Under the pieces are notes generated by a model. The model worked only from the letters and a program-made list of their open reading frames with translations, searched no databases and was not told the DNA's origin. 60,568 bases of DNA from a virus (Duplodnaviria > Caudoviricetes). Positions 1,907 to 48,400 of the stretch are shown here, piece by piece (positions within the stretch are counted from its first letter, which is position 1; each line of letters opens with the position of its first letter). Made by a program: the position numbers and the translations under genes. The stretch covers positions 1 through 60,568 of the IMG/VR virus record IMGVR_UViG_3300030060_006589; one strand, 5' to 3'.

Positions 1907-3613
1907 TTAATCTATGTTATCGTTAGTCATATCATCACTAGCATTTTTCATTATCGTTAGTAATTCAACTAAATTTCTTATTATTATTTTTTCATAATCT
2001 GATGGTATAGGATATAGTACATGGTCTGAAAAATTGGTAGATGTACCTATATATTGAACCTTAACTAATTGTCCCCATCTAAGTGTAAAACTATCTAAAT
2101 CATATTTTTTATAAAAATATATTCCTGTACCTCTAGCTGTGTCTCCTGGTTGTGTAGCACCCGTTCCAGGAACGGTATTAACTGTTGGATTTTGATTTTC
2201 CAGATAGTAATATTGTCTACCTGATTTTCTAACAGTTTTATCATAAAGAGGGCTGTGCTCACCTCCATTGGGCATTCTAGTAAATATAGTTGGTTTCCAC
2301 CCTTTACCTCGTCTACCTGATGGTAAACCTTGAGATGCACCACTACCAGCTACATCAAGCGTTAAAGAAAAAGCATTACCTGGAGTGAAAGGCTGTATGT
2401 TAGCCCCTCCCAACGGGTATATCTCTTCAAATTCCACAACATAACCTAAAATAGTCTGTGTTCCTGGAGATTCTCCTGGACCATATTCAACTGACTTTCT
2501 GAGTATTAGATTTTGATCTCTAGATAACTTGTAAGCATGTTCTTGAACGAATAAATCTACCATCTGCTCATTGTCAATAACAGCTTGAGTCTTGTGGTTA
2601 ATAAACTCAGACGTATACATAGTATCATTTATCATAAAACCTATACCATGTGCATTGTCATTAGCTGTAATTAGAGCTTCTGCTGAGTTTTCACTTCCAC
2701 CTTTATTTTGTATTATCCAACCAAGACCTATGTCATTCAATATTTCAGATGAAAAATTAAAAGATGCTCCACCGTACTCATTGTCTGCACCATCATCTAG
2801 TCCGTTATCTCCCACCCCATTAATAGTAAAGTTATCTATTCTAGATCCGTAGTTTGTTTCTAGTGAAATAGCAGCTGTTTGATATGTTCCTACTGCATTA
2901 TCAAAAGTAAAATTGCTTGTTCCAAGATCAGGTATTCCATACTCAATATCAAAGTCTTTAATAAACTTTTTAAATCCAGGACTGTTTGTGAGTGCTTTTA
3001 AGAACTCAACATTTCTTTTTTCAAAACTATCAAAACCTGAGGTATCAATATTAAATTGTATTTTATGGGTTCTAACTCCAGCATATTGATGTGTTTCTGT
3101 AACCCCACCACTGTTTAGTGTTTTTGTTATATGGAAATCAAAAGAAATAGTGTATTTTTTATCCAAAACCTTAGGTCCATATCTAAATAAAATCTCTATA
3201 TCAGAAGTGTTGTAGGTTGTAGGATTTATTTGACCATTTACTACATATCTAGTTTTTTGTTTCGATGGAACTCTTATATCTGTGCTTTCCACCCTTTGTA
3301 TACCCATATCATTAGGTAAGGAAACGTAACTAAAATCTATTGGAGCGAAAATAACACCGTTCTTAACCTCGTCTCTTAAAAGAGGTAATACAGCAGTAGA
3401 TATCCATCCACCATTTATTTCTAATTCACCTTTAGCTGTTGTTGTAGATTTAGTGTATGACCAGTCCATTATTTCAGACTTTATAAGAGCGTCTCTTTCT
3501 TGATCGACTAAAAGCATAACTTCTCTTATATCTATAGAGCTATCTTCTGTTGGATCCCCACCATTTACTATTCTTAATACTTGTTCCGCTATTTTATATT
3601 TTGTTGTTGCCAT
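1907..3613 (-). CDS. Virion tail ring-type protein with a large internal insertion
   Basis: 568 aa. Helical N-terminus and C-terminal YPIPSDYEKIII resemble ring proteins and flank a long beta-rich segment. Confidence 0.5.
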   Translation of the reverse strand: MATTKYKIAEQVLRIVNGGDPTEDSSIDIREVMLLVDQERDALIKSEIMDWSYTKSTTTAKGELEINGGWISTAVLPLLRDEVKNGVIFAPIDFSYVSLPNDMGIQRVESTDIRVPSKQKTRYVVNGQINPTTYNTSDIEILFRYGPKVLDKKYTISFDFHITKTLNSGGVTETHQYAGVRTHKIQFNIDTSGFDSFEKRNVEFLKALTNSPGFKKFIKDFDIEYGIPDLGTSNFTFDNAVGTYQTAAISLETNYGSRIDNFTINGVGDNGLDDGADNEYGGASFNFSSEILNDIGLGWIIQNKGGSENSAEALITANDNAHGIGFMINDTMYTSEFINHKTQAVIDNEQMVDLFVQEHAYKLSRDQNLILRKSVEYGPGESPGTQTILGYVVEFEEIYPLGGANIQPFTPGNAFSLTLDVAGSGASQGLPSGRRGKGWKPTIFTRMPNGGEHSPLYDKTVRKSGRQYYYLENQNPTVNTVPGTGATQPGDTARGTGIYFYKKYDLDSFTLRWGQLVKVQYIGTSTNFSDHVLYPIPSDYEKIIIRNLVELLTIMKNASDDMTNDNID

Positions 3614-4551
3614 TATCTTCTTCTTCTTGGAGTTGGTGTAGATACTCTAGGTCTACCCGCAGATGGTGCAGGCACACTTTGTTCTTTAACTTTAGCTTCT
3701 GCGTAAGCCAGAGGCTCTTGATCCCTTAAGGATATACCTATATAAGAAAGCATTCTTTGAGCTATTTCCATATGAGTTTTAGTTGGTAAAGTTAGCTGAG
3801 TTGTGTTTGATGATGATGGATTATAAACATATTGATCATTAATTATTGTATATCCCCAGTGTGGTGCTGGCGGTTTACCTATGTAAACAAGAACGATTCC
3901 ATCGGTGTACTGACTTACTGTTTCATCTGTTATTTCTACAATTTCAGCAGCACCTCCCTGAATAGCTGATTGTGACTCATATCCATATATTTCAAATCCT
4001 CTATCAAACATTACAGCTACATAGTTGTGTTTATCAGGATAAAGGACCTCACTATGTAATCTATAGGATAATTGATCATGTGTAATAAGGTCTATCTTAC
4101 CCTTTATTAATTCTTTATTTTCACCCCTTTCAGTTTTATCACCTCCCTTATCATTAAGTGCTTCCTGTTCATAATAATAACCAGGCAACTCAACAGTACC
4201 TCTATAAAGTCTTAAGAAATGCAAATACTCCCCCTGTTCCTTTTTTGTTAGCTCATTAATTTCATTAATAGGATATTTCCAAACCCCGTAACCATTTTCA
4301 TCTGAATCATATGTTAGTTGCTCTTTCATAACTACACTTCTTATATCATCAAGAACAGAATGATTCTGAACCAAAACCCTGGAGCTTCTTCCAGCAGCCT
4401 CAGCCTCAGTCTTATATCTAGCCACCCTGTCGTGTATTAAGTCCAACTGAGCCTGTTGTGCTAAAATATCAAATTCTGAAGGTTTTATAAACCCTCTTTG
4501 CTCTTTGTTTGCTATAAGCTGTACAAACCTGTATAATTCATCTATCGTCAT
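3613..4551 (-). CDS. Tail tubular/head-tail connector ring protein (P22 gp4-like, crAss-type)
   Basis: MTIDELYRFVQLIANKEQRGFIKPSEFDILAQQAQ start, YIGKPPAPHWGY, and LSYIGISLRD near the end. Confidence 0.7.
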   Translation of the reverse strand: MTIDELYRFVQLIANKEQRGFIKPSEFDILAQQAQLDLIHDRVARYKTEAEAAGRSSRVLVQNHSVLDDIRSVVMKEQLTYDSDENGYGVWKYPINEINELTKKEQGEYLHFLRLYRGTVELPGYYYEQEALNDKGGDKTERGENKELIKGKIDLITHDQLSYRLHSEVLYPDKHNYVAVMFDRGFEIYGYESQSAIQGGAAEIVEITDETVSQYTDGIVLVYIGKPPAPHWGYTIINDQYVYNPSSSNTTQLTLPTKTHMEIAQRMLSYIGISLRDQEPLAYAEAKVKEQSVPAPSAGRPRVSTPTPRRRR

Positions 4552-4568
4552 TACTCGTTTATTTTAAA

Positions 4569-4576
4569 CAAATATA
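4569..4576 (-). promoter_or_regulatory. Bacteroidota sigma70-type -7 element (TATATTTG) upstream of the tail operon
   Basis: Exact TAnnTTTG match just downstream of a terminator and 17 nt before the ATG at 4551. Confidence 0.6.
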
Positions 4577-4578
4577 GC

Positions 4579-4614
4579 AAAAAAAAAGGAGGTAACAAAT
4601 CTGTAACCCCCTTT
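4579..4614 (-). terminator. Intrinsic terminator after the capsid operon
   Basis: Minus strand reads GGGGGTTACA-gatt-TGTTACCTCC followed by a T9 run. Confidence 0.75.
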
Positions 4615-4638
4615 AAATAGTATTATTAAATCTAATGA

Positions 4639-5535
4639 TTAATTCATAGATCCCATTTTTACTTTGATTTGGTCTATAATTCCACTTCCTCTGTCAGTCA
4701 TGCACATGTCTGCTAAGCAGTCTAAAGGCTTAACCCCTAAAGGAACATGAGTTATAACAGGACGTTGATTTCCTTGGACCCAAGTGATTTTTGAAGAGTC
4801 CCAATCTAATATACCAGCATCTTTACCTCTAAGTATAGTTTGTTTAATCTCCATTTTAGGATCATCTAGTCCAGCTATAAATTTAACAGGATCTTTTTCT
4901 GCCATAACTTTCATATCGTATCTTATCTCATCAGTAGATTTATCAATATTAATACCTAAAACCTGTGCATATCCCAACAATTTATTTAAAGGCATTTCAA
5001 ACACAGTTCTTAAAGCATCCATAGATTGAATTTCTTTTTCCATTTTTTCTTTAGCATCTTTTTCAAAATCTAATCTCTTAAATACGGGGGGTCCTTGAGA
5101 TATTCTATCAGGATTACTAGCGTTAGCATTACACATATCTAAATACTTCTTTAAAGTAGGATTGGTGTAATCAACCATTAATAAACCATTACTAAATGTT
5201 ATGGGAGATTTAACCATTGAGTCCTCTTTTTGTTCATCCTCAAATATAGAAGGCTCTCCAGGTATATATCTTATTTTTCTATTTATTCCCTTTTCTGAAT
5301 CATAAATAACGTCTTCTGCCTTTAACATGTGAACGATAGGGAATTTTGTCCTACCCGTTTTTCTATCTTTACGTTCTTTATATAATCTATATGTAGTTGG
5401 TTTTCTAGAATTTTTTTTACCTTGATTAAGGTTAGCAATACCATGGGTATTTGATTTAGTTGCTGTAGGAGTCTCAACAGTTTTCGTAACCACTGGCTCT
5501 ACAGTCTTTGTAGTTGTTGTTTTTTTCTTTGTCAT
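4639..5535 (-). CDS. Conserved phage morphogenesis-module protein
   Basis: 298 aa, directly downstream of the capsid genes, with RKIRYIPGEPSIFEDEQ. Function unknown. Confidence 0.5.
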   Translation of the reverse strand: MTKKKTTTTKTVEPVVTKTVETPTATKSNTHGIANLNQGKKNSRKPTTYRLYKERKDRKTGRTKFPIVHMLKAEDVIYDSEKGINRKIRYIPGEPSIFEDEQKEDSMVKSPITFSNGLLMVDYTNPTLKKYLDMCNANASNPDRISQGPPVFKRLDFEKDAKEKMEKEIQSMDALRTVFEMPLNKLLGYAQVLGINIDKSTDEIRYDMKVMAEKDPVKFIAGLDDPKMEIKQTILRGKDAGILDWDSSKITWVQGNQRPVITHVPLGVKPLDCLADMCMTDRGSGIIDQIKVKMGSMN

Positions 5536-5573
5536 TTCTAAAATTAAATTAAAATTATTATTAAGATACCTGT

Positions 5574-5597
5574 GGAGGGAGAAAAACTCCCCCTCCT
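5574..5597 (-). terminator. Stem-loop downstream of the capsid genes (terminator or attenuator)
   Basis: GGAGGGAG-aaaaa-CTCCCCTCC inverted repeat in the intergenic gap, without a strong U-tract. Confidence 0.45.
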
Positions 5598-5652
5598 TAG
5601 ATATGTTCTTTATACTGCCTGTATATCATTTCAAGACAGTTACTAATTAGAA

Positions 5653-6063
5653 TTAGTCAGCAGCCGCTATTTGATCTACAACATGGATTCCTGTAATATT
5701 GCTATCAACAGAAGCTCCAGTTACAGCATCATAAACAACGATAAAACCATTATCTCTTGCTATAGGCTCGTTAACAGCCTCAGCAATACTCATCATGATA
5801 TCTTTTGCGGTAAAATCACCACAATCCAATACCACAACATCTAAATGATCATCACCAGCATCTCCTTCAGCAGCAAATGCTTTTTTCATTGGCTTGAAAA
5901 ACAATGAGCATCTACCACTTGCACCAGTCACTGCACCAGCAGTTGATGAATCACCAACAACTAAGCCTTGAAAAGCACTAAGTGGGTACATAACTGAACC
6001 ATTAGCTGGGTCATCGTCATTAGCCAACGTACTGTCCTTTCTAAAATATAAATACTTTTCCAT
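5653..6063 (-). CDS. Probable capsid decoration/auxiliary virion protein
   Basis: 136 aa, Ala/Asp/Gly-rich, directly after the major capsid gene. Confidence 0.45.
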   Translation of the reverse strand: MEKYLYFRKDSTLANDDDPANGSVMYPLSAFQGLVVGDSSTAGAVTGASGRCSLFFKPMKKAFAAEGDAGDDHLDVVVLDCGDFTAKDIMMSIAEAVNEPIARDNGFIVVYDAVTGASVDSNITGIHVVDQIAAAD

Positions 6064-6090
6064 TTTATATAAAGTTTATAAGGTTAATAA

Positions 6091-7533
6091 TTAAGATTTC
6101 TTGATCAACATGTAACGGTTAGCCGCAAATCCTTCAAAACCTCTTTCACATCTGTAGTGCGATTGTAGCACGTCAGTTGTATTAGTTTTGTTTTGTAAGA
6201 CAGCAGAACCCGTTAACCAGTGCTCCATATCTCTCGAATAACCATTAGCCGCTTTATATCGTATTCTTAACGATGGAATACTTTCGCCAGACTTAGCATC
6301 TTTACGCATATCCATAGGAATGCAAACACCATATCCACCGTAGTTAAATCCAGTAGCACCTAATAATCTTGGGTGATTAAATAAATCATAAGTTTTCTTA
6401 TGGAATGTATAACCTCCTCTTGTGAAAGAATTAAACCCTAAGTTTAACGCCATGTTCTTGTTGTTTTGGAAAGTACCATAATTAGCACCACCAGCTGCAT
6501 AAGCACCTTGAGCAGCTAATAAATCATCTACATCTAAAGATAGATCGATACCAGCATACATAGCGTATTCTTTAGCTCCTCTATATTTATCTAATGATTT
6601 AATAACAGCATCAAAATCCGCCATTGTAATAGAAGCAGAACCTAAGTCCATAGACTGTCCATCTGTTTCTATCCAAGGAAGCAAACCTTGAGTTCCTCTT
6701 AATGTTGAGTTGTCTGTTTGATCACCACTTTTATAATGAACAGTCTCACCTAACAATGTAGAGTTGGTAATATCCTCACCTAACATCATCATAATCTCAG
6801 AGTAATCCATAAATCTCTTATAAGTATCTGATTCACCCTTTAAGTACCATACATATCCTGAGCCCATTTTTTCATTGTCAACTTTTACGTAAACAACGTT
6901 TGTAGCCTCAGAACCTGTTACTTCAAAAGATTCTTTTAAGATCATACACTTATTATTATATTCATGAATTAACGGAGATAAACTATCTGGCTGCTTACCA
7001 CCTTCTGGGTGAGCATTACCAATGATAGCAAATTCATATGCATCTGATGTTTTTACAACATTACCTCCATCAATAGAGTGAACTGTACATGTGTAGCCAG
7101 AACCTGTAGGGAAGTTTGATGAAGTAACATACCACATGTCACCATCTTTATCCCGTAAAATATCACCTGCTCTTACCGCAGCATACTCATCAGTTCCACC
7201 TGCAAAGTTTGCCTGGTATGAATCCGATGCTAGTGTTAGTGTTACCTCAGCAGAATTATTTACTGTTGTAGTTCCAAATGTTGCACTTACACTGTTGTGT
7301 CTGAACGCTTCTTCATAGTGTTCAAACGTTGTGTTAGAACTAGGAGCTTTTGAGCCCATTAGTTCCATAAGTCCCGTAATACCTTGTTCGCCATAACGCT
7401 TAACAAGTTTATCAGAGACATCTCTTTGACGTAAAGAGTTCGTAGTTAAGTTACTTACGTAGTTCTCGTTGGTTGCAACTTGAACCGCAGAAGGCTTAAT
7501 ATGAACTTGTCCGCCTAAACTTACTGTAGCCAT
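6091..7533 (-). CDS. Major capsid protein
   Basis: 480 aa, downstream of portal and scaffold. Motifs KRYGEQGITGLM, GTQGLL, LNLGFNSFTRGGYTFHK, LRIRYKA and HYRCERG match crAss-related Bacteroidota phage capsid proteins. Confidence 0.85.
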   Translation of the reverse strand: MATVSLGGQVHIKPSAVQVATNENYVSNLTTNSLRQRDVSDKLVKRYGEQGITGLMELMGSKAPSSNTTFEHYEEAFRHNSVSATFGTTTVNNSAEVTLTLASDSYQANFAGGTDEYAAVRAGDILRDKDGDMWYVTSSNFPTGSGYTCTVHSIDGGNVVKTSDAYEFAIIGNAHPEGGKQPDSLSPLIHEYNNKCMILKESFEVTGSEATNVVYVKVDNEKMGSGYVWYLKGESDTYKRFMDYSEIMMMLGEDITNSTLLGETVHYKSGDQTDNSTLRGTQGLLPWIETDGQSMDLGSASITMADFDAVIKSLDKYRGAKEYAMYAGIDLSLDVDDLLAAQGAYAAGGANYGTFQNNKNMALNLGFNSFTRGGYTFHKKTYDLFNHPRLLGATGFNYGGYGVCIPMDMRKDAKSGESIPSLRIRYKAANGYSRDMEHWLTGSAVLQNKTNTTDVLQSHYRCERGFEGFAANRYMLIKKS

Positions 7534-25119: not shown

Positions 25120-25635
25120 TAAAAAAAATGTGAGATAAGTGTAGGTTGGGGATAATAATATAATGTAACACACGTCCGAGCAATACCGAAACCGATATTT
25201 TTTAGGGGGGTAGGTCACTATATCTATGTATACACGATTTGAAACGTCGATTTTTGCAACTATTATCTAAATACATACATATAATATACACCACTACCCA
25301 CACCCCAAATAATAATATATATATATATACATACCCGAAGTCTGTTTGTGTTTTGTTTTGATTGTTCGACAAAGAATCCTAGCGATTGACTATGTTTTGT
25401 GTAACACGTTCAAGCAGGGGCTAACTCCCTTACCAATTTAATACATAATCTACCTAACATACTGAAATCAAATTTAAGCCACATTTTCTTACACCTAAGA
25501 AACTTTCTATCTATTGTGAAGCTCTACTATTAAAACTCTCTGTTTTTTCATTAGAATCAATCTACCTCTGATACCTCATATAGATATTTATTTACAACTT
25601 TTTTCCTCGAGAGAATGAAAATAATTTACATTTTA

Positions 25636-25668
25636 TTTGGAAGTTATTTGTTTTTTACTTTACATTTG
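25636..25668 (+). promoter_or_regulatory. Early promoter, Bacteroidota sigma70 consensus
   Basis: TTTG (25636-25639), 21 nt, TACATTTG (25661-25668), upstream of the first plus-strand early ORF. Confidence 0.75.
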
Positions 25669-25716
25669 TACCATACGATTGACACAAGGTTAATCACTAA
25701 CTAAAATTATACAACT

Positions 25717-25905
25717 ATGAAAAACTTAATGCAATATCTTGAACAAGAACTTGAAGAAACTTACAAATTTATTGGAGATGATTATCAAAAAATATCTAAC
25801 GAAACGGACTGTGATGAGGACATGATGAGAGCATATGATTTAGGTAGATTTGATACACTACAACGAATTAAACGATTATTAAATAACAAAAAAATTACTA
25901 ACTAA
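25717..25905 (+). CDS. Early hypothetical protein
   Basis: 62 aa, preceded by the repeated start motif. Confidence 0.7.
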   Translation: MKNLMQYLEQELEETYKFIGDDYQKISNETDCDEDMMRAYDLGRFDTLQRIKRLLNNKKITN

Positions 25906-25917
25906 AATTATACAACT

Positions 25918-26226
25918 ATGACTAATGAACAATTATTAAATAAGTATAGAAAGATACTTAATCAGATTGCTACAATAGGCGATACAGGTGGAACTCATAA
26001 CGATACTTGGCGATATAATTGGCTAGGAGCAAAAGAAGATTTTTATGACCTTGAAGATTCTATTGGAGAAGGTAATACTATTAATGGTATTCAAGTACAA
26101 GGTATAACAGATGGCTCTTGTATAAGTATAATGAAAAGATTAGATAAGGCACTAATTGTAGCAAAGACAATAAGCAAGATAGACAAACTTGAAGATATTC
26201 TAGATGAGAATATACAATACGGATAA
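25918..26226 (+). CDS. Early hypothetical protein
   Basis: 102 aa, preceded by the repeated start motif. Confidence 0.7.
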   Translation: MTNEQLLNKYRKILNQIATIGDTGGTHNDTWRYNWLGAKEDFYDLEDSIGEGNTINGIQVQGITDGSCISIMKRLDKALIVAKTISKIDKLEDILDENIQYG

Positions 26227-26255
26227 ACTAAATTACTAACTAAAATTATACAACT

Positions 26256-26408
26256 ATGAATGAATTAATCGCACAATTTGAAATGGAACAAGCTAACATG
26301 AGTACAAGTGTAAGCGACACAATCAACACTATCAACAAGGCTTTGACTCCGTTTAGCAATAAACAAGCACATATTGACATAATGAACAGTATTACTGACG
26401 AGGTCTAA
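26256..26408 (+). CDS. Early hypothetical protein (50 aa) whose 3' end overlaps hammerhead 1
   Basis: Not in the track. MNELIAQFEMEQANMSTSVSDTINTINKALTPFSNKQAHIDIMNSITDEV*, preceded by the 24-nt start repeat. Confidence 0.65.
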   Translation: MNELIAQFEMEQANMSTSVSDTINTINKALTPFSNKQAHIDIMNSITDEV

Positions 26409-26521
26409 TAGACCGAAACAAGTCCCACACTAACCCTCTGAGTATGATAATAAATACAGAGTATAAACAAACAAGAATTATCTGAAAGAAAGACAAAAAT
26501 AAAAGGGACTTGTCTAATACT
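26388..26521 (+). ncRNA. Type I hammerhead ribozyme with an extended stem III loop
   Basis: Stem I AGTATTA (26388-94)/TAATACT (26515-21), core CTGACGA (26395-401), stem II GGTC-taata-GACC, GAAA (26415-18), stem III CAAGTCCC (26419-26)/GGGACTTG (26505-12), GUC triplet with cut after C26514. Confidence 0.9.
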
Positions 26522-26541
26522 AATAACTAAAAACTATAACT

Positions 26542-26736
26542 ATGCACTTTTTAACAGATGAACAACAAGAACAAATCTTAATAATTAGCGACGTATTAAA
26601 CACCTCTAATGTATGGACAAAATTAGAACGAAGATTAGATATAGAACTAGATTGTAATAGCGATATATTTAGCGAGATTGAAGAATTTATCTTAAACAAA
26701 TTAGAGGAGATGCAAAGTATTACTGATGATTGCTAA
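26542..26736 (+). CDS. Early hypothetical protein whose 3' end overlaps hammerhead 2
   Basis: 64 aa ending MQSITDDC*, preceded by the start motif. Confidence 0.7.
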   Translation: MHFLTDEQQEQILIISDVLNTSNVWTKLERRLDIELDCNSDIFSEIEEFILNKLEEMQSITDDC

Positions 26737-26775
26737 TAGCATGAAATAGGGGACAATGTTCCCCTATATAATACT
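26716..26775 (+). ncRNA. Type I hammerhead ribozyme (compact)
   Basis: Stem I AGTATTA (26716-22)/TAATACT (26769-75), core CTGATGA (26723-29), stem II t-TGCT-aat-AGCA-t, GAAA (26743-46), stem III TAGGGGA/TCCCCTA, AUA triplet with cut after A26768. Confidence 0.85.
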
Positions 26776-26794
26776 AAAACTAAAGATTATAACT

Positions 26795-27001
26795 ATGAAA
26801 GCATACATATTAAAACTGAAATACCTATTTATTAATAACATTGGGAAACTAGATTTTCATGGGGAAGACTTTACAATACAACACATTGAGATGATGTTTA
26901 CAGATAGGTCTTTTCAAGATGTTATATTAAATAACTATTACAACGGAACGAGTGTACTAGAAACATACGAAGAACTAGCAGAAGGATTTATTACTAACTA
27001 A
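26795..27001 (+). CDS. Early hypothetical protein
   Basis: Start at ATG 26795 after ATTATAACT. The track's 26756 start lies inside the ribozyme. Confidence 0.65.
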   Translation: MKAYILKLKYLFINNIGKLDFHGEDFTIQHIEMMFTDRSFQDVILNNYYNGTSVLETYEELAEGFITN

Positions 27002-27012
27002 AAACTATAACT

Positions 27013-27285
27013 ATGAAAAGAACTAGGAAAAGAACTAGAGTAAAAAGTATAGAGGAACTAAAGACAATATGCTCAGATGATTACTTTCAAGATTTCTACA
27101 TATCTTTAGCCAACGGACTAGCGAGAAGTAGTAAAGAAATAAGATACAATAAAGAAGAAGACATATGGGAGATAATGAATGGTATTGATGGAATTTATTT
27201 AGAATACTCTACAACACAATTAGAATCCTATACTAATATAATCCAAGCAATAGATAACGGAAATTTAATCCACGAAAAATACTAA
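27013..27285 (+). CDS. Early hypothetical protein
   Basis: 90 aa, preceded by the start motif. Confidence 0.7.
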   Translation: MKRTRKRTRVKSIEELKTICSDDYFQDFYISLANGLARSSKEIRYNKEEDIWEIMNGIDGIYLEYSTTQLESYTNIIQAIDNGNLIHEKY

Positions 27286-27301
27286 CTAAATAACTATAAC
27301 T

Positions 27302-27610
27302 ATGAATACAATAAAACTAACAGACAGAGAACTAGAACTAATAAAAGATATGTTAATTGAAAAAATAAGATACAAAGGGGTACAGAAATTAATGGTCAAG
27401 ATCCAAAATCAACTACAACAACAACTTGTGTACAGGGACACCGATTATGGATATATATTTGAAACAGATGAACAACTTGTAAAGTATTTAAGAGGACTAA
27501 CACTAGATGATGAATACAACGATTGTACAGATGAATTTCTAATAGCTGAATCACTAGAACATAATTGGGTAAAGCAAATAAAACGAAGTGAATTAACAGA
27601 TACAGAATAA
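27302..27610 (+). CDS. Early hypothetical protein
   Basis: 102 aa, preceded by the start motif. Confidence 0.7.
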   Translation: MNTIKLTDRELELIKDMLIEKIRYKGVQKLMVKIQNQLQQQLVYRDTDYGYIFETDEQLVKYLRGLTLDDEYNDCTDEFLIAESLEHNWVKQIKRSELTDTE

Positions 27611-27626
27611 AATAAAGTGAAAATAA

Positions 27627-27658
27627 TTTGCATATATGAAATATAATTCGTATGTTTG
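27627..27658 (+). promoter_or_regulatory. Early promoter, Bacteroidota sigma70 consensus
   Basis: TTTG (27627-30), 20 nt, TATGTTTG (27651-58). Confidence 0.75.
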
Positions 27659-27681
27659 TAAAACAATCAACAACTAAAACT

Positions 27682-27918
27682 ATGAGAACAAGAATGAAAG
27701 TAGACTATTACCCGTGTATTGATGAATTTGCAGAAGAACTATATCATAAAAGATTAGATAATGCAATTCCTAAAAGAATAACAAAGAAATTTTGCTTAGA
27801 AATTCTGAAGTTTATGTCCTTTAAATATGTTGGACTTGGTGGTTGCGACTACCAAACTACTCACGATGAAGAAGATTATAAACTTGCAGATGAACTAATA
27901 GATAAATATAACTTATAA
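27682..27918 (+). CDS. Early hypothetical protein
   Basis: Likely start ATG 27682 (MRTRMK) after AACTAAAACT. The track's start lies within the promoter. Confidence 0.6.
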   Translation: MRTRMKVDYYPCIDEFAEELYHKRLDNAIPKRITKKFCLEILKFMSFKYVGLGGCDYQTTHDEEDYKLADELIDKYNL

Positions 27919-27930
27919 AACTAACTAACT

Positions 27931-28056
27931 ATGAAAAAGGATATAAATTTTTACAGAGAATGTCTAAGGATAGAATTAGCAAAACCTCTACACCAAACAG
28001 ATTTTATGTATATGAGACACTTAGATAATATAATAAATGAACTTAAAACTAAATAG
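27931..28056 (+). CDS. Small early protein (41 aa)
   Basis: Not in the track. MKKDINFYRECLRIELAKPLHQTDFMYMRHLDNIINELKTK*, after AACTAACTAACT. Confidence 0.55.
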   Translation: MKKDINFYRECLRIELAKPLHQTDFMYMRHLDNIINELKTK

Positions 28057-28058
28057 CT

Positions 28059-28295
28059 ATGACTAATAAAGAATTTACATGTTTCAACGAATGGAAGAAA
28101 CAACTAATAGAATACAAATCTAAAATACATTGGATAGATAAGAATGGAAAGAATCATTACTTATGGTCTAAGAAACCAACACTCGATAAAAATGGTAATG
28201 TAGATTATAGAAAACTATCTTACACTAACAAAGTAAACAGTATAAATACATATCGTTGGATATGTGAAAATAAACCTAAATTATTAATAAAATAG
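28059..28295 (+). CDS. Early hypothetical protein
   Basis: 78 aa basic ORF within the operon. Confidence 0.6.
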   Translation: MTNKEFTCFNEWKKQLIEYKSKIHWIDKNGKNHYLWSKKPTLDKNGNVDYRKLSYTNKVNSINTYRWICENKPKLLIK

Positions 28296-28364
28296 TAGTG
28301 TGTAGTTTTTAGTTTGATTTGGGGGGAGAACTTTCTCCCTCTTAATCATCAACTAACACCACTA
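28296..28364 (+). other. Long imperfect intergenic hairpin
   Basis: Nested pairings TAGTG/CACTA, TTAGTT/AACTAA, TGATT/AATCA and GGGAGA/TCTCCC. Confidence 0.55.
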
Positions 28365-28404
28365 TCATCAACTAAAACAATTACTAACTTAAAAATATAA
28401 AACT

Positions 28405-28665
28405 ATGAAAGAAAGAAAAAGTTTCGACTTATATAAATCAATTACAAGAAAAAGAGATATAGTAGATTACATAATGGACTACGAGTCTGGAAATATGTCC
28501 GATCTAGATATATTAAGAATGTTTAGCGAACTTATTAAAAATGGGATGGCTTGGAGTTTACAAGGACATTATGGAAGAACTGCAAATAGTCTAATTGAAA
28601 GCGAATACCTGTTAGCTAATGGAGATATTAATGAGGGGAAACTAGAAGATATAGGTATCCTTTGA
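28405..28665 (+). CDS. Conserved phage hypothetical protein
   Basis: IMDYESG...FSELIKNGMAWSLQGHYGRTANSLIE, a motif I recognise from diverse phages. Function unknown. Confidence 0.65.
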   Translation: MKERKSFDLYKSITRKRDIVDYIMDYESGNMSDLDILRMFSELIKNGMAWSLQGHYGRTANSLIESEYLLANGDINEGKLEDIGIL

Positions 28666-28831
28666 TACAAATAGCTACTAACATTAAAGAAGTAGGAGTA
28701 GAAGTAGAAGATAAGAGATATATATATTTTTATATAAAAATTATATAACTAACATAATTATCTACTAATAATGGTCGGAAGGTACAAGAAAAAAATGAGA
28801 ATGTCAAGTATTAACAAAAAAAAATAAAATT

Positions 28832-28933
28832 ATGGAAAATAAAAAAGAATTATACACAATAAATGGAATTAAAATATGGGCTTATTCAAAAGAAGATGCA
28901 AAGGAGAATTATGAAAGAATAATGCGAATATAA
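28832..28933 (+). CDS. Small early protein (33 aa)
   Basis: Not in the track. MENKKELYTINGIKIWAYSKEDAKENYERIMRI*, after TAAAATT. Confidence 0.5.
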   Translation: MENKKELYTINGIKIWAYSKEDAKENYERIMRI

Positions 28934-28945
28934 ATAAATAAAATT

Positions 28946-29071
28946 ATGAACAATTACGATAGAGAGCCATACCAAGATCAAGTGGATCAGACTCCATGTA
29001 AATTCTGTGGGGAAGATACTAACTATGACTTTTGTTCTACCTCATGTAGTAGAGCGTTCTTCAACGATTGA
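28946..29071 (+). CDS. Small Cys4 zinc-finger protein (41 aa)
   Basis: Not in the track. Contains CKFCGEDTNYDFCSTSC. Confidence 0.6.
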   Translation: MNNYDREPYQDQVDQTPCKFCGEDTNYDFCSTSCSRAFFND

Positions 29072-29103
29072 TTTGCATAAGTGAAAATTATTTACTATGT
29101 TAG
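29072..29103 (+). promoter_or_regulatory. Promoter, near-consensus
   Basis: TTTG (29072-75), 20 nt, TATGTTAG (29096-29103). Confidence 0.6.
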
Positions 29104-29120
29104 CAACAACTTATTAAATA

Positions 29121-29203
29121 GAAATGGGGAGTGTGAAAGGTAGCGTTACTAGTGAAAAGTGTGAATAAAACCTAACGCATCACACCCTACACTCCCTTAT
29201 TTC
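29121..29203 (+). ncRNA. Candidate structured leader RNA/ncRNA with pseudoknot potential
   Basis: Closing stem GAAATGGGGAGTGT/ACACTCCCTTATTTC encloses crossing pairings GCGTTA/TAACGC and GTGTGA/TCACAC. Confidence 0.55.
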
Positions 29204-29233
29204 TTTAAACTAAAACTAATTAAAACTAAAATT

Positions 29234-29422
29234 ATGGACAAGAAAAAAACTGCTTATCAAGATATAGTGGACAAGATTCACTACTATATAAACAACCCAC
29301 ACAAAAACCCTTATGATGTATTTGATTACGAGGGAGATGAGGTTATACTAGACTCAAATGGAGATCGGGTTGCTGGTAATAACTTAAATAAAAAGAATTG
29401 GTATTATAATAAAAACAAATAA
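29234..29422 (+). CDS. Hypothetical protein
   Basis: 62 aa after TAAAACTAAAATT. Confidence 0.6.
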   Translation: MDKKKTAYQDIVDKIHYYINNPHKNPYDVFDYEGDEVILDSNGDRVAGNNLNKKNWYYNKNK

Positions 29423-29426
29423 AATT

Positions 29427-29636
29427 ATGAAACAAACACCATACGATTTAAACGATTTAGATTACGCAAATTCTCAACCAAATGAGAATGAATTAACAAT
29501 AAAATCTTCAACAAACACATTGTTGGGTAAGCAATTAGCTTGGTTTAATCACTTTGTTGACTATGTCAATCAAGTAGATCCAAACATATATAACGAAGCA
29601 TGTGAATACTCTGATAATGCAGAGGAAAGTGTATAA
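29427..29636 (+). CDS. Hypothetical protein
   Basis: 69 aa ORF within the operon. Confidence 0.6.
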   Translation: MKQTPYDLNDLDYANSQPNENELTIKSSTNTLLGKQLAWFNHFVDYVNQVDPNIYNEACEYSDNAEESV

Positions 29637-29653
29637 CAATTAAAACTAAAATT

Positions 29654-29797
29654 ATGTCAGATAAAACAAATCATATATACGAAGATACATTTAAAGTAGA
29701 TATTAAGTATACATACGATAGGAAACACAACAAGGTTTACGATATAGATTCTGCTGTTAAAGAATTTAATACACTAATAAAAAAATTAATGAAATAG
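29654..29797 (+). CDS. Small hypothetical protein (47 aa)
   Basis: Not in the track. MSDKTNHIYEDTFKVDIKYTYDRKHNKVYDIDSAVKEFNTLIKKLMK*. Confidence 0.55.
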   Translation: MSDKTNHIYEDTFKVDIKYTYDRKHNKVYDIDSAVKEFNTLIKKLMK

Positions 29798-29801
29798 AAT
29801 T

Positions 29802-29951
29802 ATGGATATATTTATAACAATAACAATGTCTTTTATAGCTTTGTATTTATGTTTATTTCTAACTATATTTAGTTTCGTTTTTATATTAGGAATATATACG
29901 GAGATTGTACAACCTATCTTAAGACTCATTAAAAAATTACATCATGGATAG
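29802..29951 (+). CDS. Small single-pass membrane protein (49 aa)
   Basis: Not in the track. MDIFITITMSFIALYLCLFLTIFSFVFILGIY is strongly hydrophobic. Confidence 0.5.
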   Translation: MDIFITITMSFIALYLCLFLTIFSFVFILGIYTEIVQPILRLIKKLHHG

Positions 29952-30273
29952 TATAGTTTTTAGAAAAACACATAACTTAAATTTTGCTATAGAAAAAATA
30001 GGTAAGAAATCTAAATCTTGTAACGATTATGTGCAAGAAAAGAAATTACAAAGAATAATAAAGCAAAGTTTAAAAGATCAAGAAACAATAAAAGATCTGA
30101 TCGGTGTAAAAGGTTTTGGCAAAACAGAAGAATCAGTAATTGAGAACATAAAAGTAGTTATTCAAGATAAGATACTAGCATTGAACGGTAAAGAGATCAA
30201 ACATTACATTGAACAATTACAGAAGGTGCCAGTCTCATATTGTATTAAACAGATTAGAAAAAAATACTCATAA
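29944..30273 (+). CDS. Hypothetical basic protein
   Basis: 109 aa. GVKGFGKT could be an HhH-like turn. Confidence 0.55.
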   Translation: MDSIVFRKTHNLNFAIEKIGKKSKSCNDYVQEKKLQRIIKQSLKDQETIKDLIGVKGFGKTEESVIENIKVVIQDKILALNGKEIKHYIEQLQKVPVSYCIKQIRKKYS

Positions 30274-42499: not shown

Positions 42500-45400
42500 T
42501 TAATTATTACCTCTAATACGTTTTAATTTTTCTTCATCAGCTGCTGACCACATTCTCATCATATACAGAACTTCTGGGTTTTCCATTATATTTTCTATAT
42601 ATTCAGGATCTTCTTTTTCATATCTTTTTCCATTACTATCTCTACCTTCCAATGTGTGTCTCAAGTCTGTCTGCTGCTGTTCATTTAATCCTGTTTTACC
42701 ATTTTTTAACATCCACATCATATAAGCTGCTGTCATTGGGTTTCCTTGTTTATAATCTGTAATAGCTTGCTGCACATCAGAACTAGCTGTTGAGTAATTC
42801 CAATTCATAATAACCATTCTATTTATTCTCTTTTTTATTTCTCCCCTATTCCACATCAGGTCATCTATTACCTCATCTTCTCCAAGTCTACCACGCAGCT
42901 CCTCCTCTACCTTATTTATTATTTCGTTTGATCTAGAAAGGAACATTTCCGCAGGGTCAAGATATCCATCCCCATCTAAATCTGAAAGACGCATAGTTTT
43001 ACCCTCAGAATCTATCCATTCATTTGTGTCAGGATCTTGTCTTACATTCATTTCTTTCATAACAGCATCATAAGAAAGTTTTAAATTGGCTTGGAACCTC
43101 TCTTCTGTTTTTCTTACATGATCCGCTTCAGATTGTAGTTTTGACTTTTTGTTTCTAAGAAGGTCAATGTCCCCAACATATCTTTTTGTTGCTGGACCTA
43201 AAAAGTCATTCATAAATAAATTCATTTGATTACCATACTTCTCCTTTTCAGTGTCACTTAATCCTCCTTGACTAGCCACATACATATGGTTAATAGCGGC
43301 ATACCAGGGGTTTCTATCCATATTAGTAAATAAAGATCCTAAAGCTGACTTTGTAGTTGTAACTGGAATACCACCCTCAGCTAATCCTATTTTGTCAAAC
43401 CCTTTAGAAATATCTTTTAAAATTCTATCTTCATATGAATCAGACAACCCTCTGTATTGATTGTAACCATTTTCTGCTTCAAATTTATCTGACCAAACAG
43501 GTTTATTGTAGAAAGCATCATAGTTCCATAAAACTTTTGCAGTTGCATTTAAAAGAGGATTTGAAGCCATTAAATCTCTAGGATTACCAGCACCAGTAGG
43601 TATAGCTTTCTGTAGTATTCTACCGTAAGAATTTTTATCCTCACCTCTACCCCAAGGAGTATATGAGAAAACATCTTTTCCTAAATTTCTAAAATCTGAC
43701 CCCGTTACATGTTTAAACATCATGTCTTCAGTTATAGCTCTAAACACATTCATTCTAGCATCACTAGGTATTTTAAAGTATCTAGGAGTTATAATTTTAT
43801 TGTCAGATAACTGTTCTTTTATTTCAGCTATTCTAGCATCTCTTTCTGGACCTACCTCCATGCTTTTAGCTATTCTAAGTTGATCTTGTAAAGCTGTTTC
43901 TTTTTCTTGACTAATTATATCTGTAACCTTACCAGGTAGTATTACGCAGTGGTAATTCTCTAAGTCATAATCATTTATATGATTAATAAAATATCTTCTA
44001 TTTTCGTATAACTTTTGTCTTATTTCCTTTTCTGACTCAGTATCACCATTAGCTATAGCTTGATTTAAATTCTCTTGTAATCTCTCTTCTTCATCTTCAT
44101 CTAATATATCAAAATACTGTAAGTTATAAGCCATAAGACCAGCTCCAAATGTAAGAGCCCATTGTGCTGTATCCCAAGCAAATTGAGCGGGGTTTTCAGA
44201 AACATATCTAACACTCTTGTCTAACACCTGTGACGCAGCATTAAGATAAGCAAAACCCATAGCGTCAACAGCCTTGATAGCAGTTCCTCCATTATTAAAG
44301 TTAGCGTAATCAACAGCGTTAGCTACAGCTCTTTTCTTGATAGCTATAAGATCTTCTCCTGTAGGCTCTTGACCATCATTCTTATCTTTGTATTCTTGTA
44401 CATATTTTTTAGTCCATCTTTTGTAATTAGCTAATCTACCTGTCATCTCAGATGTTGAGTTTGGAGCAGAAATAAATCTTTTAAATATATCCCAACCACT
44501 CTTAGTGTTAGGATTTACATAAGGAGCCTCATCTCCATACAAACTATTCACCTGTTCTCTTGCAGCTTGTTGTCTAGCGTCAAACTCAGGGAGTTTATTT
44601 GCGGGATCTGCCATTATTTCTCTAACTCTCTTTTCTAATTGAACCTCATCAATAGCTGTATCTTCTACATAATCCATCAAACCGTATCTCGTCATAAACT
44701 CTAAAGATCCTCCAAGCATCTTATACTCTTGACTAAGTGGACCGTTTGTTGCTGCATCTATCATAACAGACAGCCAGTCTTTTCCTGCTACCGCAAATTT
44801 TGTAGCTAAAGTTGATCCATACCACTTACCATTATAAGTGTCTGTAAATATAACTTGTTGAGCGAAGTCGTAGAAAATATTAGCAATAAAAAATGCAGGA
44901 GCACCAACACCAGTAGCAAACACCTTAAGTATACTTCCAGCACGCCTAAGAGGACTAAGAGCTTTTCTTGCCCACCCAGATGTAGGAATCCCGTCTCTAG
45001 GATTAGCAAATAAGCTTTTATAAGCAGCATTTTTCATAGCAAATCTTATATTCTTTCCATTCTCACTGTAGCTCATTTCAATGTGACCATCTGCAACTTG
45101 CTCACCATCTTTTAATATGTAGCCAATATCTTCACCTTTAAGCTTTAGTCCATTTATATATTCAAAACCCTGACTAGCTATAGCAGATATCATATTGTAT
45201 ATACCTTTTCTAACTTCATTTTCAGCTCTTAATTTAGCTCCTATAGCTAATGTATTCTGAAGAAGCTTAACAGGATCCATATATAAAACTTGATCACTAC
45301 CCTGCTTTAAGGTTTTTATAGGAGACTGCATATGATCTCCCTTCTCAGATCTTCCTGACCTTCTTTGACTAATTATATCTCTCTCAGCGAATATTACATG

Positions 45401-48400
45401 GTCAACAAATTTTCTAGGATTATATTTTAAATTTTTAAGCTCATTATAAGTTGCTTCATCTATAAGACCAGCTTCAAAGTTTCTTTTTAACTCATTACGA
45501 TACTCTTCAAAAAGTTTGTCAGTAGTTTCTCTTATTATATTAAATCTATCGCCCTGTTCTTCCTTCATTGAGTCTATCATACCTTGTGCAAGCTCTTTGT
45601 TCATCATCATGTAACCTTCACCTTTAGGGTTTTTAGTTTCAGGATGTTTTAGTCTCCAAGGGAACTTTTTCTTCTTAGTAGTTGGGTCTAGCACTGGTTT
45701 AATTCCAGGTTTCATTCTTTCACTAATGTCTTTACCATCCTTATCTTTAGTTAAATATTCTAAATAATAACCTGAACCATCCTCATTTTTCTTAATATTA
45801 ATATTAGAGTTGTCTTTATATATGTTATCTAATTCACTCTCAGCTTGTTTTATTGCTTCTTTTATAGCAGATTTCTGATCTTTTTTAGCTTTACCAAGTT
45901 TTTTAGATAAAGAATTTAAGTTTTTAATAATAGCATCAGCTGCTGACTTTTGAGCATCATATAAATTATCAATCTCTATTATTCTCTCTAATGTAGATAG
46001 TTGACCCACTAGTTTTATTTGAGCTGAAGATAAAGTTCCCCATATTCTTTTATTAGCCTGGTCTATAAATTCTTTAGCTGTTCCTGGAACTGTTAACCAT
46101 AAAGTTATAGAAGCGAGAGCGTTAGAAGCTGTCTCTCCAAGGTTTAAATCCTTGCCAATGTTTCTGATAGATCTTTTTATTCTATACTTACTATCTACTG
46201 TAAGCTCTTTTAAAGCAACAAACTTATCATCTAAAGTTTTTCTAAAGTTCTTTAGTCTTCCAAAGAAATTATCTTTACCTCTTGAGAATGCCGCATCCTG
46301 ATCTTTCTGTAAATTAGATAGAGCTTCAGCATAATCTTGTAGAGTCCAATCCTTAGTGTCAACTTCTGAGTTTGAAGAATCTTCTATTTGATCCTGTTCT
46401 TCTCTAGTTTTTTCTAAGTGTTCATCTAGTTCATCTAATTTAGATGCTTCTTCTTCTGTCAGCTCAGTTTCTCCAGCCATATTGGATTGTTTAGGATTGA
46501 ATAACCCTTCTTGAGTTGATAAAAAGTCTCTAAATAATTCTCTTATCTCAGCTTCTTGATTGGGGACAAATTTATCTCCCTCAGCCTGAGCTTTCTTTAA
46601 GTAATCTATAGCTGCATCTATAGCTGTAGCAACACTAGAAGTGGCTCTAAGAGTAAGAGAAGCTGTTTTTAAGGCAGCCCTAATAATAGGTACAGACATA
46701 AATGGATCTGCATAAGCATTACCACCTAAGTCTTTATATATCTGATCTAGTTTATCTGCAAAGTCTGTTAAGATTTGAAAACGCTGAACGCTTCTGCTAG
46801 AATACTCATCTCCTGTTCTGAGATCTGAGATGTCCTGGGCGTTGTCCCCGCTATTAATAGCTCTTTGCCTTCTGGCAAGCTCTCTATTGATGTCTGTGTC
46901 AAACGACTTTTCTTGTCTTGTAGTTGTTTCGTATTCCCCATTTGTAAAAACTTTTGTATTAATATAACCAAATTCTACGGTATTAAAAATATCATCACCG
47001 TATTTTTCTTGTATTTCTCTTATTGCTTTATTTACTCCTTCAGTCCATTTAGAACCAAGGTTATCTATATTTTCCATCGTTAAACCCTCACCCATTGGCT
47101 CCATAAGATACTCAGGAACAAATTGCATTGACATGCCTACAACCTCTGCTTGTTGATTATAGTTAAGAGTTAAACCCTCCACGCCATTAGGACCAAAATG
47201 CTCATTAGCAAACTCTCTAGCTTCAGTAAGAGTCATAGGCTCAGAAAATTCTATTCTTCTAAAAGGTCTAGCATTAGGATCTTGCTCTGTTGTAACCTTA
47301 GATATAAATACAGATTCTTGCTCATTATTGATAGCTGTAGTTAACAACTCATCAACTAAAGGAGATATATCTGTTCCAGCATCAACTAGCATTTCTAAGT
47401 TTATAGTATCTTCTGTTTGATTCATATATATACCTTCTGACTGATATGGTCTACCCATAGCACCTAACTGCTTAACTATAGCGTCTAAGTTCTGAAGTGC
47501 TTGATCCATTCTAATAGACCCTTGCATAGTTTCAGCTATGACAGCAGCAATTTCTTCATCGGTAGCATTTCTTTCTAAAGCCTTTTGAACAGCTCTAGCC
47601 GCAGCACTATATATTCTGTTTTTCTGTTCTGGACTTGTATTCCCTATAAATGTACTAGCACCTATCATAACTCTATCTGTTATGTCAGCAGACCTAACAG
47701 CATTTTCCATAGTTGACTGCTCTTTAGCTCTCACATCCCCAGTAAATCCAGACTCGTTATATATTTGTTTTTCTATAAACCACATAGAAGCCTGTAGATC
47801 GTCAGGGTTTAAGTTTAACTTCTTAGCAGCTATAGCGTATACACTTTGTGCAAAAGCAAAATCTTTATTACCTACTGTTGTTTCTTGAGACTGTCTTCTT
47901 CTAAATGGTACAAACCCTCCTTGAGAATATAATATTCTTCTCATATTTCTAGCAGCCCAAACATCAATAGTAGCACTTCTATCTCTTAAAGATAAGTTAT
48001 TGTAAAACTGTCCTGTTTTATTAGCTGGATTATTAGATAACCAATTACCATATAAAACCCTAACAATACCTGAAGTAACTACTGGAAGACCGAATGATTT
48101 CCCGTTTTTCTTTTTTATAGCAGCTACAACATCTTGATCAGAAGAAGCCTGTCTTATAAGTTCTTTAGCTTTAAATAAAGCTTTTTTGCCTGTACCAAAA
48201 ACACCTTGATCATACTGAGCCATTATATCTTTAACTTTTGCATCGTACACTTCTAAAGACTCGTCAAACTTACCCTCTGAGTAAGATCTTAAAACTTCAG
48301 TAGACTTTCTAAAGATAACCTGAGGCGGTGCCTGTGGAGATGTAACACCTAGCAACTCAAAGAATATTGGTGCATTTCCACCAAACTTCTGTTGTATTAA

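Follow-up and report, generated by a model that had tools for sequence, protein, structure and literature searches.

A type I hammerhead motif with a 78-nt loop III at a gene junction of a marine phage operon

The early genes of phage T7 are separated by intercistronic sites at which the RNA is cut by RNase III, a host protein enzyme. Processing of polycistronic RNA has also been proposed for clustered prophage hammerhead ribozymes, which cleave in vitro (Perreault et al. 2011, PMC3088659). In that report, candidates were accepted if Watson-Crick pairs were present beside the core, at positions 10.1-11.1 and 1.1-2.1 (PMC3088659). Pistol ribozymes have likewise been described as sitting near phage genes and other ribozymes (PMC4604425). 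A discontinuous hammerhead is known from mammalian Clec2 3′ UTRs (Martick et al. 2008, as presented in the review PMC6765202), and the same review still describes the biological role of bacterial and phage hammerheads as undefined.

The window, which designates here the whole stretch of DNA that was analysed, is an entire IMG/VR virus record of 60.6 kb rated complete. It encodes a portal, a capsid-like protein, a primase/helicase and a RecE-like exonuclease. The portal is 30-34% identical to the portals of Cellulophaga, Maribacter, Tenacibaculum and Flavobacterium phages; the phage is distantly related to Flavobacteriia phages and, judging from these sequences, presumably has a Flavobacteriia host. 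A run of small rightward ORFs, presumably an early operon, starts at about position 25717 and carries on its sense strand two hammerhead motifs, HH1 and HH2, with a spacing of 328 nt. None of the 7 small ORFs around these ribozymes matched a PHROG family, blastn of positions 25500-29500 against the phage collection gave no match and a tRNA scan of the window found no tRNA. The features of the two motifs and of their surroundings are as follows.

26256-26408, plus strand: upstream ORF of 50 aa with no assigned function; its last 7 codons and stop overlap HH1
26388-26394, plus strand: stem I 5′ strand, AGTATTA (AGUAUUA), paired with 26515-26521 over 7 bp; family covariation
26395-26401, plus strand: catalytic core C3 to A9, CTGACGA (CUGACGA); read from the sequence
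26402-26414, plus strand: stem-loop II, GGTCT-AAT-AGACC (GGUCU-AAU-AGACC), 5 bp including G10.1-C11.1; family covariation
26402-26406 and 26410-26414, plus strand: the stem II strands GGTCT and AGACC, with the loop AAT between them; read from the sequence
26415-26418, plus strand: core G12, A13, A14 and A15.1 (GAAA); read from the sequence
26419-26426, plus strand: stem III 5′ strand, CAAGTCCC (CAAGUCCC), 8 bp with 26505-26512; fold and pair probabilities
26427-26504, plus strand: loop III, 78 nt between the stem III strands; mostly single-stranded by prediction
26505-26512, plus strand: stem III 3′ strand, GGGACTTG (GGGACUUG), partner of 26419-26426; fold and pair probabilities
26513-26514, plus strand: U16.1 and C17 (T26513/C26514); predicted scissile bond 26514/26515, from the position relative to the core
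26515-26521, plus strand: stem I 3′ strand, TAATACT (UAAUACU); predicted 5′ end of the downstream product, overlapping a conserved junction motif
26522-26736, plus strand: A-rich leader of 20 nt and downstream ORF of 64 aa, with its ATG at 26542, 27 nt past the predicted cut
26716-26775, plus strand: HH2, with the same stem I, the core CUGAUGA, a stem III of 7 bp with a 6-nt loop and a predicted cut after A26768

The region 26388-26521 of the plus strand is a complete type I hammerhead. Stem I is open, stems II and III are closed by loops, and every invariant position is intact, including G10.1-C11.1, A15.1-U16.1 (A26418-T26513) and the GUC triplet, which places the predicted scissile bond after C26514. 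Both Watson-Crick pairs that flank the core are present in HH1 (G26402-C26414 at 10.1-11.1 and A26394-T26515 at 1.1-2.1); HH2 has a U.U mismatch at 10.1/11.1, which the core-flank rule of Perreault 2011 does not accept. A previous sequence-only reading of this DNA had described a perfect core, a stem I of 7 bp, a stem II of 4-5 bp and a stem III of 8 bp, in agreement with the present assignment (stem II being of 5 bp), and the intact-core hammerhead that it proposed is now also backed by a covarying family of relatives. We considered HH1 as a discontinuous hammerhead of the Clec2 type and rejected this candidate, the insertion being in loop III and the stem I strands forming the open ends. At physiological Mg2+, natural hammerheads cleave fast only if stem I and loop II make a tertiary contact. 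A partner for this contact was sought in HH1 and none was identified; stem I has no bulge. Loop II and its closing pairs (C-U-N-A-U-A-G) are conserved in the family alignment beyond what pairing needs.

The minimum free energy structure calculated with ViennaRNA for the 134-nt HH1 is exactly the expected three-way junction (-26.1 kcal/mol, z -2.98), and 2 of 200 shuffled sequences fold as well. With 40-nt flanks included, stems II and III are predicted to pair with a probability above 0.8, above 0.9 for stem III itself. In the same context the stem I made only of A and U reaches a probability of about 0.3 in HH1 and 0.03 in HH2. We searched the 60.6-kb window with a home-made type I descriptor that allows loop III to extend up to 600 nt. 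Two matches were obtained, HH2 and HH1, the latter scored I=7, II=5 and III=8, while 200 dinucleotide shuffles of the window gave a mean of 0.075 matches. A stem I of at least 6, a stem II of at least 4 and a stem III of at least 6 were found together in none of these 200 shuffles, showing that the complete core and three helices of HH1 are far beyond chance. A descriptor search tolerating long loops had been suggested along with the original reading, and it does recover HH1.

Relatives of HH1 were collected by pattern scans of IMG/VR and one exact 20-mer scan of metagenome contigs, followed by the descriptor filter. The first IMG/VR pattern scan, for stem I, core and GAAA, returned at least 115 stretches, most of them due to chance, and few passed the descriptor. 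Long-range descriptor matches in L035 and L111 and a 429-nt alternative in L158 were discarded as false positives, on account of their 3-bp stems or of a neighbouring hammerhead. The window and the scanned loci contain 27 distinct hammerheads of the HH1 architecture according to the descriptor, so that the family has at least 27 members. They share a stem I of 6-7 bp, mostly AGUAWUA/UAWUACU, and a stem II of 4-5 bp closed by a loop of 3-4 nt; stem III is variable. The descriptor detected 12 further type I hammerheads outside this set, eleven belonging to a subfamily with a GGUUUA stem I and one found in L189. The sequence of stem III differs in nearly all members and is paired in 27 of the 27 descriptor matches, although this pairing is a search criterion and thus constitutes weaker support.

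Covariation was analysed with a covariance model, R1, built from 13 short members. In 46 loci, R1 gave 28 matches at E≤0.1; a pair of duplicate contigs and two weak matches at E 0.029 are counted among them. In the R1 alignment, which is fitted to the model and hence biased toward structure, 93.9% of the cells are paired and 10 of the 14 pairs have changed on both sides. The margin is nevertheless large: these values were reached by none of 500 shuffles, and sliding the partner strand by 1-3 columns left 27-40% of cells paired. Applied to the window with filters off, R1 detected HH2 (61.3 bits) and HH1 (46.6 bits), the next match having an E value of 1.3. The strong covariation within these related phage contigs indicates that HH1 belongs to a genuine RNA family.

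Comparison of HH1 with Rfam 15 gave no match at gathering score; the best one was a partial match of its 5′ half to Hammerhead_3, at 15.6 bits. R1 itself misaligns HH1, to positions 26388-26451 (46.6 bits). It had been proposed that the long insert hides HH1 from covariance searches. This is true insofar as Rfam misses HH1 and R1 misaligns it, but short-loop relatives are also below threshold: Hammerhead_HH9, whose gathering score is 52, gives them 26.1 and 24.4 bits (E 5e-4 and 2e-3, search of 901 nt), and 6 loci compared with Rfam showed no hammerhead at gathering score. The insert is thus not the sole reason why HH1 escapes detection. The gathering score is a threshold of the database model and not a property of the RNA; by all the sequence and structure criteria that can be tested HH1 is a type I hammerhead, and only the Rfam score thresholds say otherwise. 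Since a whole family of canonical hammerheads lies below these thresholds, ribozyme counts in marine viromes are likely to be underestimates.

The position of HH1 relative to the neighbouring genes was compared with that of its relatives. The stop codon of the upstream ORF (TAA, 26406-26408) lies within stem-loop II and is followed by an in-frame TAG, and the downstream 64-aa ORF terminates in turn inside HH2. In the window, each hammerhead overlaps the seven final codons of the ORF upstream of it in the same frame, and this ORF stops in loop II. The 5′ strand of stem I of HH1 doubles as Ser-Ile-Thr... codons of its upstream ORF, orthologues of which were found in L102 (68% aa) and L164. For 24 of the 28 hammerheads, an ORF of at least 30 aa ends between -7 and +21 nt from the first base of the ribozyme, the remaining 4 having no such upstream ORF within the sequence covered. 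These ends fall at -7 to +5 in 19 cases, which means that the ribozyme sequence is usually not translated, and at +20/+21 in the other 5. A downstream ORF of at least 30 aa is present for 27 of the 28 hammerheads. Its ATG is located at a median distance of 26 nt from the predicted cut, within 20-39 nt in 22 of the 27 cases, with outliers at 1, 8, 50, 118 and 122 nt. A leader motif, TACTAA...AAAA.TATAACT-ATG, is common to the ribozyme junctions and to the junctions of the window that carry no ribozyme.

Several sense-strand ribozymes thus stand between adjacent ORFs of one operon, two in the window and eight in the relative L154, forming intercistronic arrays. The eight successive junctions of L154 carry 5 hammerhead and 3 pistol ribozymes, and the latter pass the Rfam gathering score of 34.5 with 54.4, 40.7 and 40.6 bits. 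The presence of both classes at successive junctions shows that they are interchangeable at the same place.

Loop III contains 43 A out of 78 nt (55%), compared with 44% A in the surrounding region 25717-30000, and corresponds to the long A-rich loop previously noticed at 26427-26504. Folded alone, it reaches -5.0 kcal/mol (z -0.92), a value equalled by 36 of 200 shuffles. The inner hairpin proposed in the sequence-only reading (CTCTG 26436-26440...AGAG 26458-26461) is present but does not exceed chance level (z -0.92). The loop also holds a micro-ORF of 13 codons, from ATG to TGA (26444-26485), and a 12-nt mimic of the GUH triplet and stem I 3′ strand (26440-26451), which attracts the covariance model; both are probably fortuitous. 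Comparison of the loop with Rfam at E≤10 revealed no second ribozyme, no aptamer and no other family. Neither a terminator-like site nor a sigma-70-like promoter was found at 26427-26504, Bacteroidetes-type promoters being outside the coverage of the tool, and the promoter-like count of the region (32) is not above that of shuffles (35.1). The sequence-only reading had suggested that the insert could delay folding or bind a regulator. Transcribing the roughly 86 additional nucleotides takes about 2 s, and a loop closes much faster than a hammerhead cleaves, the half-times of cleavage being seconds to minutes. The added time for transcription and the slower closure of a long loop are both small relative to these half-times, which makes a pure folding delay by loop III physically weak as an explanation, although a bound factor could alter this.

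Other alleles exist at the same junction. In L102, the hammerhead that comes after the orthologue of the upstream ORF has stems I and II identical to those of HH1, and its 7-bp stem III is closed by a 4-nt loop. In L119 (2523-2574), stems I and II are again identical and a 4-bp stem III with a GCGA loop precedes the orthologue of the downstream gene. A short stem III allele also occupies this junction in a DNA contig of run X4, from a genome without ORF 26256-26408. X4 is one of the four DNA runs that contain most of the phage; the contigs of two others, X2 and X3, display the unchanged region with the long form, and X5 covers little of it. No RNA run was among the 23 runs listed for the phage. 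These short-stem orthologues indicate that the long form is a stem III replacement in one lineage and not a requirement. The predicted pairing of stems II and III is equally high with and without loop III, so the loop is dispensable for the fold as modelled.

The same stem III and loop were found in two metagenome contigs, L164 and L165, with 0 substitutions over 94 nt and one extra A in L164. Compared with the window, both contigs have one G-C pair of stem II swapped to C-G, an A to G change in the loop of this stem and a different N7. Between the window and L164 there are 4 substitutions within the ribozyme, none of them in stem III. L164 is syntenic with the window, and its upstream gene, orthologous to ORF 26256-26408, differs by 22 substitutions over 131 aligned nt in addition to indels; at this divergence, the probability of observing no substitution in 78 nt is about 6e-7. 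In L165, unrelated genes flank the block on both sides. The loop has therefore been either under selection or very recently copied between hammerheads, and three near-identical copies are too few and too alike to separate selection from recombination. Stem II and stem III types are freely combined across the family, which, together with short homologies in the flanking ribozyme and leader sequences, favours recombination as the route by which the loop has spread. Searches for further copies returned only unrelated sequences: a 16-mer across the stem III/loop border had 4 and 14 matches in IMG/VR, none of them related by blastn, a 17-mer of the 3′ border of the loop had 6 chance matches in coding sequence in IMG/VR, and a 20-mer of the loop had 2 chance coding matches in species-representative bacterial genomes. 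Blastn and nhmmer of the loop against 197 loci found none beyond L164 and L165, and the window itself contains no further copy above 13-16 nt.

Taken together, these data make it likely that HH1 is a functional self-cleaving type I hammerhead that processes intercistronic mRNA in a marine phage operon, loop III being an accessory or passenger segment. It is possible, though somewhat doubtful, that the loop is instead a functional module, in which stem III and the A-rich single-stranded loop would form an accessory RNA domain while the ribozyme still works. Such a domain could recruit a host or phage RNA-binding protein, ribosomal protein S1, the 30S subunit or an endonuclease, and could make cleavage conditional or influence the stability of the upstream message, which would retain the loop at its 3′ end after the cut. 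The conservation of the block fits this proposal: across three genomes, with flanks either 17% diverged or of unrelated sequence, its 94 nt show 0 substitutions and one 1-nt indel. The block is also found beside two versions of stem II and ahead of three different downstream genes, as would be expected of a piece retained or transferred whole, and a loop of 55% A that is predicted to be unstructured would suit single-strand binders. However, three near-identical copies provide neither covariation nor graded conservation, and recent gene conversion explains their identity equally well. Moreover, no further copy was found in IMG/VR, in the 197 loci, elsewhere in the window or among species-representative bacterial genomes, the loop has no Rfam match, and a tetraloop suffices for close relatives at the same junction. 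We regard as unlikely the stronger proposal that the 94-nt unit moves between hammerheads and that a trans-acting factor (ribosome, S1, phage protein or nuclease) controls cleavage or the fate of the upstream message; if true, a phage operon would contain a natural hammerhead under the control of a factor. Allosteric hammerheads are characterised by a structured sensor domain attached to a stem, the state of which directs the folding of the core; in HH1, the loop folded alone has a z of -0.92, matches no Rfam aptamer and offers no covariation in its three copies.

The activity of HH1 itself could also be questioned. That it is a disabled relic, its folding blocked by the long loop or by competing pairings such as those of the mimic (26440-26451) and its junction left unprocessed, appears quite improbable. 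R1 does prefer the alignment that includes the mimic (26388-26451, 46.6 bits), stem I is weak in context, and very long non-hairpin insertions have been rejected as implausible candidates by other workers (PMC10085705). Yet all core positions are intact and G10.1-C11.1 is retained, stem III is the joint-longest perfect helix in this architecture with a predicted probability above 0.9, and use of the mimic would reduce stem III to one G-C pair and mismatches. The long form is moreover intact in three genomes, with a compensatory G-C to C-G change in stem II, which argues for selection acting on the ribozyme in the lineage with the long loop. Hardly credible is a conservation that owes nothing to RNA catalysis, the sequence either encoding a protein C-terminus (…SITDE/D) or serving in the DNA as a signal for recombination or for the junction, with no more than a resemblance to a hammerhead. 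In the window, the final codons of the upstream ORF are indeed read in one and the same frame in both hammerheads, up to a stop in loop II, and a motif also present at ribozyme-free junctions overlaps the 3′ strand of stem I. But the upstream ORF ends inside the ribozyme (+20/+21) in only 5 of 24 cases, the other 19 ending at -7 to +5; the compensatory double changes in stems I, II and III fit RNA pairing and not a coding or DNA site; and pistol ribozymes occupy the same position in L154.

If HH1 acts as an intercistronic self-cleaving hammerhead, transcription through the operon would produce a polycistronic RNA and, when both stem III and the 3′ stem I strand are complete, this RNA would cut itself after C26514, as we infer from established hammerhead chemistry. 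The upstream piece would end with a 2′,3′-cyclic phosphate just behind the stable hairpins of stems II and III, and the downstream piece would start with a 5′-OH, 27 nt ahead of the next ATG, in an unstructured A-rich leader. By analogy with the RNase III sites of T7, the outcome would be single-gene messages, with the stability and translation of neighbouring cistrons uncoupled. A ribosome terminating at the upstream stop, which is situated within the ribozyme or immediately ahead of it, would sit on the 5′ strand of stem I, stem II and the core, so that upstream translation and ribozyme folding should compete. Loop III would represent a lineage-specific substitute for the usual short stem III, and the 8-bp helix that closes it, with 5 G-C pairs, would be the reason why it is tolerated. 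Most probably it is an accessory or passenger segment that has spread by recombination among hammerhead copies and is not needed for catalysis. Three observations count against the self-cleavage part of this explanation, namely that no contact between stem I and loop II was identified, that the all-A-U stem I is predicted to be only marginally stable and that Rfam does not score HH1 as a hammerhead. The absence of substitutions over 94 nt and the presence of the same block between unrelated genes in L165 count against a passenger loop.

A hammerhead that processes intercistronic mRNA belongs to a kind already known, and HH1 is not new in kind. What is new is in the detail: a marine phage family below detection thresholds with a very regular junction geometry, a natural pair of long and short alleles, and a loop block without substitution in different contexts. 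Searches of open-access text turned up no earlier description of these points, neither for hammerheads with a long loop III nor for arrays of hammerhead and pistol ribozymes in marine Flavobacteriia phages. This phage group constitutes an unusually clean case, with ribozymes at exact junctions, a fixed 26-nt leader and interchange of hammerhead and pistol ribozymes. The long-loop and short-loop alleles at one junction also provide a ready-made test of whether peripheral insertions tune a ribozyme in vivo.

The closest described systems are the clusters of Perreault 2011, which share with this locus a canonical core, several coding-strand ribozymes between small phage genes and the proposed cutting of polycistronic RNA into gene-length messages (PMC3088659). 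An association with another ribozyme class, pistol, is likewise a property of known phage ribozyme clusters (PMC4604425). In contrast to the clusters as described by Perreault 2011, the present ones are found in a marine, Flavobacteriia-type, lytic-looking phage, the HH1 family lies wholly below Rfam gathering thresholds, and the upstream stop is at or inside the ribozyme, with a regular 26-nt leader to the ATG. HH1 differs further by its 78-nt loop III, the comparison being with the main text of that report. The Clec2 hammerhead resembles HH1 in that its helices are joined across a long non-conserved insertion and that it cuts just past a stop codon (PMC6765202). According to the same review, however, the Clec2 insertion is of several hundred nt and splits the substrate and enzyme strands of a eukaryotic mRNA, whereas that of HH1 is of 78 nt, lies within loop III and belongs to a phage operon. 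Among Rfam models, Hammerhead_HH9 (RF02275), also of type I, has the same topology and core and scores best for the short-loop relatives; neither hammerhead of the window is matched by HH9, and the extended stem I with internal loop of HH9 is absent here. The predicted processing also recalls the RNase III sites of T7, where cutting leaves the upstream message with a 3′-terminal hairpin and releases the leader of the following gene. In T7 a host protein makes the cut, whereas the RNA of HH1 is predicted to cut itself, leaving 2′,3′-cyclic phosphate and 5′-OH ends.

The long loop III of hammerhead 1 (HH1, type I, 26388-26521 on the plus strand) contains a short segment, GAGUAUGAUAAU (26440-26451, plus strand), that mimics the G-U-H triplet and the 3′ strand of stem I. 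This segment is complementary to the 5′ strand of stem I (26388-26394) at 6 of 7 positions, and the family covariance model, built from 13 short hammerhead members, places its HH1 alignment on it. The mimic is possibly a folding decoy, or the remnant of an older 3′ half. Also lying entirely within loop III is an ATG...TGA frame of 13 codons (26444-26485, plus strand). The frame is the same in two metagenome contigs with an HH1-type stem III and loop (L164 and L165), because the loop is identical there; as a translated ORF it is only putative.

A contig from DNA sequencing run X4, representing a co-occurring related genome, carries a short-stem allele of this junction. The equivalent of window position 26225 is joined straight to that of 26388, and the ORF at 26256-26408 is therefore absent from that genome. 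From 26419 onward, stem III has 4 bp and a GUGA loop instead of the long form.

A near-identical motif of about 24-27 nt (…TTACTAACTAAAAnTATAnAACT-ATG) recurs at the junctions and leaders 5′ of many small ORFs of the window. The motif overlaps the stop codons of the preceding ORFs and is similar in sequence to the hammerhead stem I 3′ strand together with its leader. The copies, and the large reverse-strand ORFs of the window, are as follows.

Junction/leader motifs and large reverse-strand ORFs
25690-25716, junction/leader motif
25891-25917, junction/leader motif
26229-26255, junction/leader motif
5′ of the ATGs at 27013, 27302 and 28405, similar motifs
42500-54208, minus strand, 3902-aa ORF, weak DUF7178 match only
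57557-60508, minus strand, 983-aa ORF, crAss-type muzzle C-terminal domain (29.7 bits; cut-off 27 bits)

The motif could be a translation-initiation region in a host that does not use Shine-Dalgarno sequences, a phage promoter or a gene-cassette recombination site. The top sigma-70-like site of the region (25679-25707, plus strand; TTGACA-17-TAAAAT, 11/12 match) stops 9 nt short of the first small ORF (ATG at 25717), so that a nearly leaderless first message would result. The total number of sigma-70-like sites in the region does not exceed that in shuffled sequence.

At the next gene junction downstream of HH1, hammerhead 2 (HH2, 26716-26775, plus strand) has a U.U mismatch at 10.1/11.1, a stem II formed by TTGCT/AGCAT and UA as the predicted cleavage dinucleotide. 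Its stem I has a predicted pairing probability of only 0.03 when the sequence context is included. Under the acceptance rule of Perreault 2011 (PMC3088659), HH2 would be rejected, or would be expected to cleave slowly.

Among the IMG/VR loci L182-L197, 11 contigs carry a separate type I hammerhead subfamily, in which stem I is GGUUUA/UAAACC, stem-loop II is 13 nt long and stem III is interrupted; it scores 31-37 bits against the family covariance model. In the related locus L154, one predicted self-cleaving ribozyme lies at each of eight successive gene junctions (3509-6813): five hammerheads and three pistol ribozymes, the latter with Rfam scores of 54.4, 40.7 and 40.6 bits. To our knowledge, this array is among the densest ribozyme arrays known.
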